Source: a virus | Taxonomy: Duplodnaviria; Caudoviricetes | IMG/VR virus record: IMGVR_UViG_3300021961_000002 | Location: 1-60,295 of that record | Direction: 5' to 3' (one strand) | DNA length: 60,295 nucleotides | Shown: one piece after another, positions 46,574-51,067 of the stretch | Layout: each line of letters starts with the position of its first letter | Position numbering within the stretch: position 1 is the first letter of the stretch | Made by a program: the position numbers and the translations under genes | Notes under the pieces: generated by a model | What the model was told of the DNA's origin: nothing | Database searches by the model: none | What the model saw: the letters and a program-made list of their open reading frames with translations, nothing else

Positions 46574-46764
46574 GCGATGACTTACTAAAGTACCTATCGG
46601 CCAAACTCAAAGACGAGCAGGACGTAATTACTTCTGACTTGTCTATGGGGAAGGCCAAAGACTTCGGGGAATATAAGTTTGCCTGCGGGATTATGAGGGG
46701 GCTGCTTATAGCTAACAATCTAATAGTAGAAATATCTGAAAGGATGGACACAAGCGATGACTGA
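46570..46764 (+). CDS. Small hypothetical protein
   Basis: Coupled between portal and GroES; DF.EYK..CG..RGL. Confidence 0.65.
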   Translation: MSDDLLKYLSAKLKDEQDVITSDLSMGKAKDFGEYKFACGIMRGLLIANNLIVEISERMDTSDD

Positions 46765-47167
46765 ACTTCTAGTCGGCACAAACCCCGACAATATAGAAGA
46801 TTCCACTGTATTGCCGGAAACGCCTGAGAAAAAGGCTAAGCAACTACCGAACCCTTCAGGGTACCGTATTCTGTGCGGAGTCCCTGACGTAGAGGCCAGG
46901 ACTGAGGGTGGCCTTTTTAAGTCTGACATCACTATGCGTAACGAGGAACTCCTAACGACGGTCCTGTTTGTTATTAAATTAGGGCCGGATTGTTACAAGG
47001 ATTCTAAGAGGTTCCCTTCTGGACCTTGGTGTAAGGAGGGCGACTTCATACTGGTACGTCCGCACGCTGGTAGTCGGGTTAAGATTCACGGTCGCGAATT
47101 TAGGTTCATCAATGACGACTCCGTTGAGGGTGTTGTTGAGGACCCGCGCGGCATTTCCAGAGCCTAA
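46757..47167 (+). CDS. groES: GroES-like co-chaperonin
   Basis: P.GYRIL, TEGGL, V.KLGPD, CKEGD..L, G....I.G.EFR.INDD.V.GVV. Confidence 0.8.
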   Translation: MTELLVGTNPDNIEDSTVLPETPEKKAKQLPNPSGYRILCGVPDVEARTEGGLFKSDITMRNEELLTTVLFVIKLGPDCYKDSKRFPSGPWCKEGDFILVRPHAGSRVKIHGREFRFINDDSVEGVVEDPRGISRA

Positions 47168-49268: not shown

Positions 49269-50183
49269 ATGGCTATTTCACGCGCACAACTACTGAAAGA
49301 GCTGCTTCCCGGCCTTAACGCTTTGTTTGGTCTGGAGTATGCTAAGTACGGCGAAGAGCATAAGGAAATCTTTGAGCAGGAATCTTCGGAGCGTTCGTTC
49401 GAAGAAGAAACCAAGCTCTCTGGCTTTTCTGCTGCTCCCGTCAAGGATGAAGGCTCTGCCATTGCATATGACAATGCGCAGGAAGTCTTCACCGCACGCT
49501 ATAACCACGAAACGATTGCCCTTGGGTTCTCGCTCACGGAAGAAGCGATTGAGGATAACCTCTACGACTCGCTCTCCTCGCGGTACACGAAGGCCCTCGC
49601 TCGCGCTATGGCGTACACGAAGCAGACGAAAGCTGCGGCGATTCTGAACAACGGCTTTGATGGCACGAACTACCCCGGTGGTGACGGCCAAGCTCTTTTC
49701 AGCTCGTCGCATCCGCTTGTTTCTGGCGGTACCAACTCCAACCAGCCTTCGGTGGCTGCTGACCTCAACGAGGCTTCTCTTGAGAACGCGGTTATCGACA
49801 TTGCTGCTTGGACGGATGAACGTGGGCTCTTGATTGCGGCTAAACCTCGCAAGCTCATCGTTCCTCCGGCGTTGATGTTTGTCGCGACTCGTTTGCTCGA
49901 AACTGAGCTTCGTGTCGGCACGGCTGATAACGACATCAATGCGCTCAAGTCGAACGGTTCGATTCCGGAAGGTTATTCGGTTAACCACTTCCTGACGGAC
50001 ACGGACGCTTGGTTCCTTAAAACGGATGTTCCGAATGGTCTTAAACACTTTGTCCGTTCGCCCATGGCGAACTCGATGGACGGTGATTTCGACACCGGCA
50101 ATGTCCGCTACAAGGCCCGCGAGCGTTATTCGTTCGGTTGGTCCGACCCCCTTGGAATGTATGGTTCCCAGGGCGCGGCGTAA
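49269..50183 (+). CDS. Major capsid protein (Mu gpT-like, HK97 fold)
   Basis: MAISRAQLLKELLPGL, GGDGQALFS..HPL, P.KLIVP.AL, DFDTGN.RYKARERYSFG; strong RBS; followed by a terminator. Confidence 0.9.
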   Translation: MAISRAQLLKELLPGLNALFGLEYAKYGEEHKEIFEQESSERSFEEETKLSGFSAAPVKDEGSAIAYDNAQEVFTARYNHETIALGFSLTEEAIEDNLYDSLSSRYTKALARAMAYTKQTKAAAILNNGFDGTNYPGGDGQALFSSSHPLVSGGTNSNQPSVAADLNEASLENAVIDIAAWTDERGLLIAAKPRKLIVPPALMFVATRLLETELRVGTADNDINALKSNGSIPEGYSVNHFLTDTDAWFLKTDVPNGLKHFVRSPMANSMDGDFDTGNVRYKARERYSFGWSDPLGMYGSQGAA

Positions 50184-50189
50184 TGTTAT

Positions 50190-50220
50190 GGGGGGAGGGT
50201 TCGCCCTCCCCCTATTTCTT
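50190..50220 (+). terminator. Rho-independent terminator after MCP
   Basis: GGGGGAGGG-TTCG-CCCTCCCCC then TATTTCTT. Confidence 0.75.
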
Positions 50221-50224
50221 AGAA

Positions 50225-50280
50225 TCCGTACTGACTGATTTGCAGACTTAGTAGAGACAGTGCGGAAAGTGCTACTACAC
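50225..50280 (+). ncRNA. Structured RNA element with pseudoknot (candidate Mu-gpT-DE-like motif)
   Basis: P1 50225-33/50258-66 (9 bp); loop TAGTAG 50249-54 complementary to CTACTA 50272-77, just before the SD. Confidence 0.55.
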
Positions 50281-50290
50281 GGAGATAAAA

Positions 50291-50746
50291 ATGGGTACGA
50301 CAACTTTTAGCGGTCCAGTTAAGGCCGGAACTATTCAGAACACGACGGGCACAACGCTTGGTTCCAATGTAGCGAATGTTGGCTACGTTGTTATGGCGCA
50401 GTCGGCGGCTATCACTCAGAGCACGACGGCGGCGGGAACTGGGATTGTCATCCCGGCTAATTCTCAGATTCTTGAGATCACTGTTTTCGTCACGACAGCT
50501 TTTGATAACTCGGCTACCCTGAGCGTCGGCACTAGCTCTTCATCCAATGAATTGGCGACCGGGGTTGCAGTCTCGACGATCAACACGATTAAACTGGCTT
50601 CGCAGGCGACGATTCCGGATGCGGATGCTTGGGAAGATGTCGGTACCACCGATGTTGAAATCTACGTTGATTCGAGCGCCACGACTGCGGATGCGGGTGT
50701 AGCTACTCTGACGGTTACATATATCCAGAACAACAACCTGGCTTAG
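50291..50746 (+). CDS. Virion structural protein
   Basis: TTFSGPVKAG start, IPANSQI..I; Thr/Ser-rich, beta-rich. Confidence 0.6.
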   Translation: MGTTTFSGPVKAGTIQNTTGTTLGSNVANVGYVVMAQSAAITQSTTAAGTGIVIPANSQILEITVFVTTAFDNSATLSVGTSSSSNELATGVAVSTINTIKLASQATIPDADAWEDVGTTDVEIYVDSSATTADAGVATLTVTYIQNNNLA

Positions 50747-50761
50747 TAAAGGGGATACCTG

Positions 50762-51067
50762 ATGGGTATGCAATACGACGTTAAGGCGTCTAAACCCCTT
50801 ACAGCTACAGGTAGTTTTCTAGATCAGTCAGATAACGCTCTCGGTAGGGTGCGCATTAAGGCCATCTATACCGTGAACGGGGCTTCTGCAGGCTCTGTAG
50901 TCATCTCGGATGGTGACGGTGGTACTACGCTTATCACCCTAAACACCCCTGCAGTGGCTAATGATGGCTCGTCTTATCTGCTTCTACCTGGAGAGGGTAT
51001 TTTGGCGTCGAGTGCCGTCTACGGCACAGTCACGAATACTGCGTCAACCGTTGTTATATACGGGTGA
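50762..51067 (+). CDS. Small virion protein
   Basis: MQYDVKA..R.KAI..LPGEGIL..VIYG. Confidence 0.55.
   Translation: MGMQYDVKASKPLTATGSFLDQSDNALGRVRIKAIYTVNGASAGSVVISDGDGGTTLITLNTPAVANDGSSYLLLPGEGILASSAVYGTVTNTASTVVIYG

Follow-up and report, generated by a model that had tools for sequence, protein, structure and literature searches.

The sequence analysed here (the window, one IMG/VR virus record taken over its full length of 60,295 nt) is a complete genome of 60,295 bp with direct terminal repeats. At its capsid locus (Table 1), the upstream open reading frame matched Pfam families PF25209 (E 7.6e-13) and PF10124 (E 2.1e-10) as well as PHROG 371 (major head protein). The gene is followed by a G+C hairpin with the stem GGGGGGAGGG (50190-50199) / CCCTCCCCC (50204-50212) and by an interrupted T tract, TATTTCT, that reaches 50219. 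This combination is the one expected of an intrinsic terminator, and the terminator scan listed it at 50190-50209. The leader element begins 42 nt past the capsid gene stop and is abutted by this terminator. There is no promoter-like spacer between the two, and no sigma-70-like site was found between 50183 and 50291. The 9-bp stem (P1), the small inner hairpin (P2) and the TAGTAG/CTACTA complementarity (strands b and b'), to which a first-pass annotation of the sequence had drawn attention, were all present at the positions claimed, and direct reading confirmed both their letters and the stem coordinates.

Table 1. Features of the capsid locus and of the RNA element in the leader of the downstream gene.
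Feature	Position	Strand	Basis or remark
Major capsid protein gene (Mu-gpT-like / Phage_capsid_4)	49269..50183	+	ORF list; stop TAA at 50181-50183
Intrinsic-terminator-like hairpin	50190..50219	+	10/9-nt G+C arms, TTCG loop; sequence and terminator scan
Place of the relatives' 5' pseudoknot strand a	50218..50224	+	CTTAGAA in the window; CTAGG, CCGGG and others in relatives
P1 5' arm TCCGTACTG	50225..50233	+	Read from sequence; RNAfold; covarying in relatives
Junction A between P1 and P2	50234	+	A in 58/59 distinct sequences
P2 hairpin	50235..50245	+	CTG 50235-37, loop ATTTG 50238-42, CAG 50243-45
Junction AC	50246..50247	+	A in 59/59, C in 58/59 distinct sequences
Pseudoknot strand b, (T)TAGTAG	50248..50254	+	TAGTAG 50249-54; covaries with b'
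Junction AGA	50255..50257	+	A in 54/59, G in 58/59, A in 59/59 distinct sequences
P1 3' arm CAGTGCGGA	50258..50266	+	Pairs with TCCGTACTG: 9 bp, one G-U
Linker AAGTG, P1 to b'	50267..50271	+	Best parses of most relatives give 2-8 nt
Pseudoknot strand b', CTACTA(C)	50272..50278	+	CTACTA 50272-77; 3 nt between CTACTA and GGAG
Shine-Dalgarno GGAG	50281..50284	+	6 nt ahead of the ATG at 50291
Capsid cement-like protein gene, 151 aa	50291..50746	+	ORF; conserved N-terminal MxTTTFSGPV arm, jelly-roll body

The 151-aa product of the downstream gene was 46% identical (E 6e-32) to gp56 of CRP-902, an isolated Roseobacter phage (PMC10149686), and also 46% identical to the annotated 'cement protein' of DSL-LC04, a metagenome-assembled phage (PMC10611076). 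Among 4959 candidates from a protein collection, 4773 were relatives at E<=0.001. A PDB sequence search with this protein and with the capsid protein gave no credible match. An AlphaFold (AF2) model of the 151-aa protein (pLDDT 75.6) was then compared with solved structures using Foldseek. The top match was the cyanophage Pam1 capsid chain 7eel_H (E 1.4e-5, TM 0.58/0.62), and the next ones were capsid chains of Helicobacter phage KHP30 and Ralstonia phage GP4 (7dn2_1; 8h89_J). The KHP40 'trimeric cement protein' (7dou_4) was matched as well. The model has a jelly-roll like that of the solved cement chains and the gene lies beside the capsid gene, as for cement proteins of the Pam1/KHP30/GP4 type. 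Based on this model, the downstream gene is predicted to encode a capsid accessory protein with a cement-like fold.

By itself, the window provides weak evidence for a structured RNA, marginally beyond chance, because both shuffled sequences and other stretches reach its scores. RNAfold finds P1 in the window with a z-score of -2.12, and 4 of 200 shuffles fold equally well or better. An ad hoc motif parser gave the window a score of 50; 3 of 300 shuffles scored at least as high, as did 9 of 200 other 125-nt stretches of the window. The significance of the motif comes from the comparison with relatives.

For this comparison, 80 IMG/VR loci with 85-93% identity were taken among more than 600 matches to the capsid protein. 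The 170 nt past each capsid stop presented the same arrangement in different letters. A model built from 10 near-identical type-1 seeds (R1) was too narrow, with other classes reaching only about 10 bits with filters off, and it was replaced by R2, built from a gapless MAFFT alignment of 21 seeds from three classes that were picked by parser geometry. The window was not among the seeds of either model, and each matched the 60,295-nt record at a single place, R1 scoring 54.4 bits (E 1.4e-11) and R2 scoring 36.5 bits (50218-50279, E 1.8e-6). R2 matched 65 of the 84 capsid-anchored loci, once per locus. The 19 loci without a match were mostly explained by an early locus end, another gene after the capsid gene or classes missed by the filter.

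The 65 R2 matches (59 distinct rows) revealed a strongly covarying structure. Indeed, 93.3% of the cells pair and 22 of the 24 pairs show changes on both sides, in 385 cells, for a covariation score of 0.705 as compared to 0.225 in shuffles. None of 500 shuffles reached the covariation score, the percentage paired or the cell count, while one reached the number of both-side-changed pairs and 21 the number of pair types. When the partners were shifted by one to three columns, only 27-41% of the cells paired. In the gapless alignment of the 21 seeds, 97.0% of the cells pair and 18 of 24 pairs covary, including compensatory changes in all seven b/b' pairs, but this count is not blind to structure since the seeds were chosen by the parser's geometry. 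The corresponding figures for 42 R1 matches were 93.3% and 17 of 24 pairs. The alignments of 42 and 65 matches were fitted to P1 and P2 by the models, and because the pseudoknot strands are outside these models, their counts are, if anything, conservative. Whole-leader MAFFT alignments (A1 and A2) misplaced the flanking pseudoknot strands and were excluded from all counts. The first-pass annotation had proposed a pseudoknotted RNA between the terminator of the Mu-gpT-like capsid gene and the next ribosome-binding site, with conservation and covariation in homologous intergenic regions as its test, and both were found.

Each helix could also be followed separately. All nine P1 pairs have compensatory changes among the relatives, while P2 pairs in 100% of the cells and its middle pair covaries as UA, AU or CG. 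For the b/b' helix, at least 13 complementary versions were counted, with further classes in addition, so that the TAGTAG/CTACTA pairing first noticed in the window is a covarying helix. G-U pairs are frequent in the alignment, which fits an element located on the + strand. Around these freely varying helices, the six junction nucleotides (A, AC and AGA) are nearly invariant in the 59 distinct rows. Furthermore, the relatives have a fourth helix (PK-a), which joins the P2 loop (a') to a strand of 5-7 nt (a) lying 5-10 nt ahead of P1. The a/a' versions include CTAGG/CCTAG, CCGGG/CCCGG, CCAAG/CTTGG, CTGGG/CCCAG and CCTAG/CTAGG, as well as CCGGA/TCCGG, CCGGATT/GATCCGG, CTTGG/CCAAG and ACTATAC/GTATAGT. 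The full element is thus predicted from its pairings to be a double pseudoknot of about 70 nt, in the order a, linker, P1, A, P2 (with a' as its loop), AC, b, AGA, P1', linker, b' and Shine-Dalgarno sequence (SD). The P2 loop has 6 nt in the relatives and 5 nt in the window, where CTTAGAA at the place of strand a forms at most four weak pairs with the loop according to the parser output. PK-a is degenerate or lost in the window. Having no a strand and a 5-nt loop, the window copy is a reduced form in which P1, P2 and b/b' are intact.

This reduced variant is present in contigs from two other studies, both covering 50109-50800. One contig has no difference from the window and the other shows 5 over 688 nt, all outside 50225-50290; five changes are too few for demonstrating selection on the variant. 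Contigs were the only sequences in which the stretch was found, and the single RNA sequencing run identified gave no coverage of it. A 15-nt search for the exact loop variant of the window retrieved 75 IMG/VR stretches, none of which has the motif.

The first-pass annotation had pointed to Mu-gpT-DE (RF03012), which it described as a metagenome-only RNA motif found downstream of such capsid genes, and had named an Rfam search as a check. With Rfam 15, the window gave no match at gathering score, and the 301 nt at 50100-50400 gave none at E<=10. The same search of 20 + 10 capsid-anchored loci returned terminator-like chance matches and nothing else. When RF03012 (gathering score of 49 bits) was searched against the whole record, three weak matches (9-11.7 bits) were obtained elsewhere and none near 50.2 kb, and in the records of five relatives it did not match at the element. 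As a positive control, phage CRP-902 has an RF03012 match of 72.3 bits ending at the gp56 start codon. Mu-gpT-DE is present in an isolated phage, and the description as metagenome-only does not hold.

To relate the two RNAs, the leaders of 80 IMG/VR loci anchored on the window's cement protein were sorted by type. R2 matches accounted for 37 of them and a Mu-gpT-DE leader, recognised by pattern, for 18. Another 21 were assigned by script to an AT-rich class that keeps the architecture but not the letters (a ACTATAC / GTATAGT, P2 CGA/TCG, b CCTAG / b' CTAGG within CTAGGAGG), and the last four had other or truncated leaders. Seven of the 18 Mu-gpT-DE leaders were given to Rfam and all seven passed the gathering score. 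Indeed, the RF03012 positives among the 20 loci searched (7/20, 50.4-69.4 bits) were exactly the seven that show the Mu-gpT-DE sequence. Loci with a cement protein 94% identical to that of the window carry Mu-gpT-DE and share the 5' flank of the window.

The consensus of RF03012, a family that Rfam files as sRNA, consists of an outer stem CCUG/CAGG, an A, an inner hairpin CAG../..CUG and ACAcUAGCCAcGA, followed by the SD and the AUG. The window resembles it in its position, downstream of a Mu-like gpT major head gene, and in its core (outer stem, bulged A, C.G/C.G hairpin and AC...GA strand). It does not have the CAGG running into the SD, the end of the model at the AUG or the conserved UAGCCA. 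Instead, 14 nt (AAGTG, CTACTAC and AC) separate CAGTGCGGA from GGAG in the window, and the junction strand TTAGTAG pairs with b'. In an alignment of six sequences, the terminator and the TTTCTT(A)GAATCC flank were common to the window and the Mu-gpT-DE leaders, while the window matched the type-1 pseudoknot leaders from the end of P2 to GGAG. The window leader appears to combine the two forms, Mu-gpT-DE and pseudoknot, either as an intermediate or through recombination.

Taken more broadly, both RNAs lie in the slot between the terminator of a Mu-gpT-like capsid gene and a homologous cement-like gene that follows directly. They have in common the succession of outer stem, A, C.G/C.G hairpin, AC, a strand of 7-9 nt, GA and outer stem, and their 3' side lies at the ribosome-binding site, with the outer stem of Mu-gpT-DE overlapping the SD and its model ending at the AUG. 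Moreover, both are found with and without an upstream promoter. However, RF03012 scores neither the window nor any of the pseudoknot-type leaders tested. The outer stem has 9 bp in the window as compared to 4 in Mu-gpT-DE; the window's 5' arm is longer by about 4 nt, and about 20 additional nt (3' arm extension, linker and b') precede GGAG. In window-type leaders, a junction strand of variable sequence pairs with b', whereas Mu-gpT-DE has the conserved UAGCCA, and in most pseudoknot-type relatives the hairpin loop also takes part in the 5' pseudoknot. Their alignment, like the slot that they share, suggests that Mu-gpT-DE and the pseudoknot leaders are relatives with one common core. The pointer to Mu-gpT-DE was consequently right about the slot, the homologous genes and the core, although the window is not a member of RF03012. 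A pairing of the Mu-gpT-DE junction strand with AUGGCUA at the start codon was also tried, with a mixed result, and was not used as support.

In the literature searched, the name Mu-gpT-DE appears in two records, both belonging to one work. It is absent from the main text of Weinberg 2017 (PMC5737381), whose supplement may describe the motif. For the pseudoknot form, no description was found in Rfam 15 or in the literature searched, which did not extend to this supplement. The same literature contained nothing joining cement protein, pseudoknot and bacteriophage, and nothing on structured RNA, capsid gene and covariation together.

The gene served by the element was indicated by loci in which other genes are inserted after the capsid gene. 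These inserts code for GIY-YIG/NUMOD3 proteins, endonuclease VII, an unassigned 200-aa family or, on the other strand, a GNAT protein. In such loci (L002, L005, L011, L035, L036, L042, L043, L051/52, L072 and L075), the element is found 0.3-0.9 kb further downstream, still immediately before the gene whose product begins with MAxTTFSGPV. Because it moves with this gene past the inserts, the element is the leader of the downstream gene and does not belong, as a 3' element, to the capsid message. The proteins encoded downstream of the motif form at least four BLAST clusters with little in common beyond their N-terminal arm, and the RNA architecture is kept across all of these clusters. The capsid protein remains 85-93% identical over loci whose leaders differ in every helix.

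The position of the last helix was determined in 85 distinct leaders. Strand b' overlaps the SD by at least 2 nt in 39 leaders and by 1 nt in one, ends 0-3 nt before it in 41 and ends 4-6 nt before it in four. Hence, b' lies within 6 nt of the SD in 85/85 leaders and overlaps it in 40/85, the window belonging to the group with a distance of 3 nt. Several independent classes have CCTC, CTTC or CCTAG in strand b, opposite GAGG or AGGAGG. Pseudoknots that act as translational operators are known from E. coli rpsO (S15), from the alpha operon (S4), where the pseudoknot is double, and from the leader of T4 gene 32. Like the cement leader, they are 5'-leader pseudoknots that include or abut the ribosome-binding site, and the alpha-operon leader has the double pseudoknot in common with it as well, but no relation by sequence or model was found between any of them and the cement leader.

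Taken together, these observations point to a cis-acting element for translational control in the 5' leader of the capsid cement gene, a reading to which we give a probability of roughly 45%. A compact pseudoknotted RNA of about 55-70 nt would form in this leader, with the 9-bp P1 closing a junction that holds the 3-bp P2 hairpin and the 7-nt strand b. Pairing of b with b', just downstream of P1, would generate an H-type pseudoknot ending 3 nt before the SD in the window. In most relatives, but not in the window, a second pseudoknot would tie the 5' strand to the P2 loop. We infer that the pseudoknot, once folded, limits or gates the binding of 30S subunits to the ribosome-binding site of the cement gene, and that an effector contacts the junction nucleotides (A, AC and AGA) to stabilise or open the fold. 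A conserved phage structural protein, either the cement or the capsid protein, would be the most likely candidate for this role, and cement synthesis may thereby be matched to capsid production.

Control of translation initiation is the simplest explanation because the last helix is always at the ribosome-binding site, the element accompanies one particular gene and the junction core is fixed. A phage protein is our first guess as the effector, since the capsid protein is so well conserved across differing leaders and the N-terminal arm of the cement protein is shared. Several points stand against this reading. The gene codes for an abundant virion protein, with no obvious need for repression. 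The sequences of the helices are not conserved, which leaves a sequence-specific protein about six fixed nucleotides and the shape of the RNA. Simple autoregulation by the cement protein is weakened by the large differences among the downstream proteins outside the N-terminal arm. Because the SD itself is unpaired in the window and in 41 + 4 of the 85 leaders, its occlusion could there only be steric. Finally, part of the fold seems dispensable, since the window copy without the 5' pseudoknot is still kept unchanged in the contigs of other studies.

The regions upstream of the element bear on another function, namely that of an mRNA stabiliser or processing element. Of 87 distinct upstream regions, 40 contain a -10-like hexamer ending 4-13 nt ahead of strand a, as compared to 18.6 in shuffles, and in many further regions near-consensus TATAnn variants were rejected by the rule. 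A -35 hexamer located about 17 nt upstream of the -10 was visible by eye in L017, L005, L002, L043, L077 and L046, among others, and a scripted rule (TT start, 4 of 6 positions, spacer of 16-18) retained 5 of the 87 regions. In these promoter-bearing loci, the element would start the transcript, with strand a as its first nucleotides locked in PK-a, and promoter-bearing copies of Mu-gpT-DE start likewise. Pairing of the 5' terminus is known to stabilise bacterial mRNAs, as in the ompA leader. The fold could accordingly shield the cement transcript from 5'-end-dependent RNases without any regulatory input or, where the terminator abuts the leader, define a processing site that lies between the messages for capsid and cement. 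On the other hand, the terminator abuts the element and no promoter was seen in the GTGCAGG class, in L073 and in the window. As the promoter-less GTGCAGG class keeps a PK-a that covaries (CTAGG/CCTAG vs CTTGG/CCAAG), a role limited to protection of the primary 5' end is not general. In addition, a plain hairpin would suffice for this purpose, and the invariant junction and the constant closeness of b' to the SD would have no explanation. We consider this function unlikely, though it fares best among the alternatives to translational control.

A compact pseudoknot with a near-invariant junction, freely covarying helices and a 3' helix that abuts or covers the SD would also suit a riboswitch, whose junction would bind a small molecule or ion in a pocket and thereby stabilise the pseudoknot near the SD. 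SAM-II, SAM-V and preQ1-II/III have a similar build, that is, a small H-type pseudoknot with its 3' strand at the SD and conserved junction nucleotides. The first-pass annotation had likewise been reminded of SAM-II by CUGAUUU after P1. These letters are made up of the P2 stem and a loop peculiar to the lineage of the window; the loop differs in every relative, and in relatives it is the partner in the second pseudoknot. This resemblance does not stand, and Rfam found no SAM-II (RF00521) in the window. No riboswitch model of Rfam 15 matched the window or the loci of 30 relatives, only about six unpaired positions are conserved, and neither the gene context nor the function of a capsid accessory gene suggests an obvious metabolite as signal. 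A riboswitch is thus quite improbable.

We see even less reason to favour a self-cleaving ribozyme that would cut the cement message off a read-through capsid transcript or shorten the former at its 5' end. Small ribozymes of several classes are often met with in phages, and the double-pseudoknot topology, the small invariant core and the position directly after a terminator without a promoter in some clades would all be in keeping with one. However, Rfam found no twister, twister-sister, pistol, hatchet, hammerhead or HDV-like ribozyme in the window and the 30 relatives' loci, and the closeness of b' to the SD would be left unexplained.

Still less probable is an element acting on transcription, in the manner of the put RNAs of HK022, which act on RNA polymerase, so that the long structural operon after the capsid gene would be read through its terminators. 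In many loci the element follows a promoter directly and heads the structural genes that remain, and CRP-901-type relatives lack an RNA polymerase gene of their own (PMC10149686). Such an action would not explain the covarying pairing with the SD region, and promoter-less copies exist. Lastly, that the window holds a chance structure, a decaying remnant without function, is hardly credible even with the weak evidence from the window alone, the loss of PK-a and a loop variant seen in no other motif-bearing IMG/VR locus (0/75 pattern matches), given that P1, P2, b/b' and every junction nucleotide are intact, that the variant is retained unchanged within 50225-50290 in contigs of two further studies and that the record is a complete genome with terminal repeats.

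Beyond these functions, the topology alone recalls the exoribonuclease-resistant RNAs of flaviviruses and plant viruses, in which a 5' strand reaches into a junction closed by a stem and a segment within that junction has its pairing partner beyond the stem on the 3' side. The partners are swapped in the cement leader, where the hairpin loop pairs with the 5' strand and the junction strand with the 3' strand, and the cement leader has a linker of 5-10 nt. In addition, a 5'-3' exonuclease is not known from the hosts. An HDV-like fold was also considered and set aside, as its strand order does not appear to fit.

As for their distribution, the leaders are present in marine, estuarine and freshwater viromes. 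In genome contigs, 12 of 100 pattern loci searched (114 found) hold the true element. All 12 are MAG contigs assigned to many unrelated phyla and are most simply explained as binned phage contigs, and we therefore claim no host.

Mu-gpT-DE, an RNA without a function since 2017, is now placed as the 5' leader of a cement gene, which leads to a testable hypothesis of translational control. It has a pseudoknotted sister form that is larger, is absent from Rfam 15 and has its 3' strand on or beside the ribosome-binding site. With four helices varying freely around six fixed nucleotides, this form offers a good covariation case for structure work, and the isolated phage CRP-902 provides a tractable test system. 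The intermediate or recombinant leader of the window may show how a hairpin within a hairpin grew into a double pseudoknot. A more far-reaching proposal, which we hold as a tentative and somewhat unlikely one, is that the A / C.G-C.G / AC / AGA core shared with Mu-gpT-DE is a specific binding pocket or active site and that both RNAs belong to one large, unrecognised sensing class, whether they report on capsid assembly by binding free cement or capsid protein or represent a riboswitch or ribozyme of a new kind. If this is true, such a class would couple cement synthesis to capsid production in very abundant groups of marine and freshwater phages.

We found Mu-gpT-DE (RF03012), an orphan RNA family that the first-pass annotation had described as metagenome-only, in the isolated Roseobacter phage CRP-902 as well as in IMG/VR loci (table). 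The family is therefore not limited to metagenomes. Each true Mu-gpT-DE element, in CRP-902 and in the IMG/VR loci, ended exactly at the start codon of a cement-like gene, which makes the family a 5' leader and not a free sRNA. The usual gene start, AUG-GCU-A, contains UGGCUA, which is complementary to UAGCCA, the junction strand conserved in Mu-gpT-DE. Covariation between this strand and the start-region codon was checked at one position in the Mu-gpT-DE loci L246-L485, where the outcome was mixed: A occurred with GCT (66) and GCG (6), T with GCA (14), GCT (60) and GCG (1), G with GCT (16), and C with GCG (2) and GCT (7).

Mu-gpT-DE elements and genes inserted upstream of the leader
Feature	Locus	Positions	Strand	Remark
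Mu-gpT-DE (RF03012)	L084, phage CRP-902	2886-2939 (OQ401624 34455-34507)	minus	isolated phage
Mu-gpT-DE (RF03012), true elements	L166, L172-L174, L177, L178, L226			IMG/VR loci
Inserted gene	L014	3499-4107		between capsid terminator and leader
Inserted gene	L031	2990-3799		between capsid terminator and leader
Inserted gene	L011	4057-4308		between capsid terminator and leader
Inserted gene	L002	3199-3633	minus	between capsid terminator and leader
Inserted gene	L005	3526-4119		between capsid terminator and leader
Inserted gene	L035	3515-4117		between capsid terminator and leader

Other forms of the leader were also observed. A reduced leader at L214 (~1400-1500) has an outer stem P1 formed by GCCTGACAG/CTGTCAGGC, together with GCACGC/GCGTGC as its b/b' pair; no inner P2 hairpin is evident. 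Because P1 and b/b' are kept there without an evident P2, this sequence suggests that P1 and the 3' pseudoknot together make up the minimal core. Yet another leader type, the third, stands upstream of a distant cement-gene homologue in Planktothrix phage Pag-Yong1 (OL906435; L082 3404-3510), where the loop of a G+C-rich hairpin contains CCGTCTCC, complementary to GGAGACGG at the SD; on this single sequence, it would be another candidate SD-covering pseudoknot.

With R2, our covariance model of the pseudoknot-type leaders, true elements (E<=3.5e-5) were recovered on MAG-binned contigs (L486, L490, L496, L498, L507, L523, L536, L548, L552, L554, L556 and L561), that of L536 within a 1.1-Mb record. 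The bins belong to unrelated phyla and are labelled Chitinophagales, Ignavibacteria, Microbacteriaceae, SAR86, Chloroflexota, Dehalococcoidia, Neomarinimicrobiota, Alphaproteobacteria and Gammaproteobacteria, and most of these contigs are probably phage sequences that ended up in the bins. As to the wider gene neighborhood, of four related phage records examined, three (DSL-LC04, Pag-Yong1 and HTVC027P; L081-L083, 1-465) have a GroES co-chaperonin annotated four genes 5' of the capsid gene. None is shown in the fetched stretch of CRP-902, and the window ORF at the matching place (46757-47167) had no Pfam match.

An insertion hot spot (table) lies where the capsid terminator meets the leader; it is occupied by GIY-YIG/NUMOD3 homing endonucleases, an endonuclease VII, a GNAT acetyltransferase and a 200-aa, Cys-rich family that has no Pfam match. 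When window positions 49269-50746 were compared with L001-L080 and L166-L172, the nearest relatives of the capsid protein (92-93%) were loci with other cement proteins, and those of the cement protein (94%) were loci with a Mu-gpT-DE leader and a more distant capsid gene end. The window is mosaic, and the join seems to be located within the leader. Conservation in the gene that follows (window 50291-50335 and relatives) is limited to the first ~10-15 residues, MAxTTFSGPV..., an N-terminal arm shared by four or more protein clusters (78-248 aa) that are otherwise unrelated; the structure model of the window protein has low confidence for its N-terminal 30 residues. A conserved N-terminus followed by a variable remainder fits a capsid-anchoring arm with swappable surface domains.
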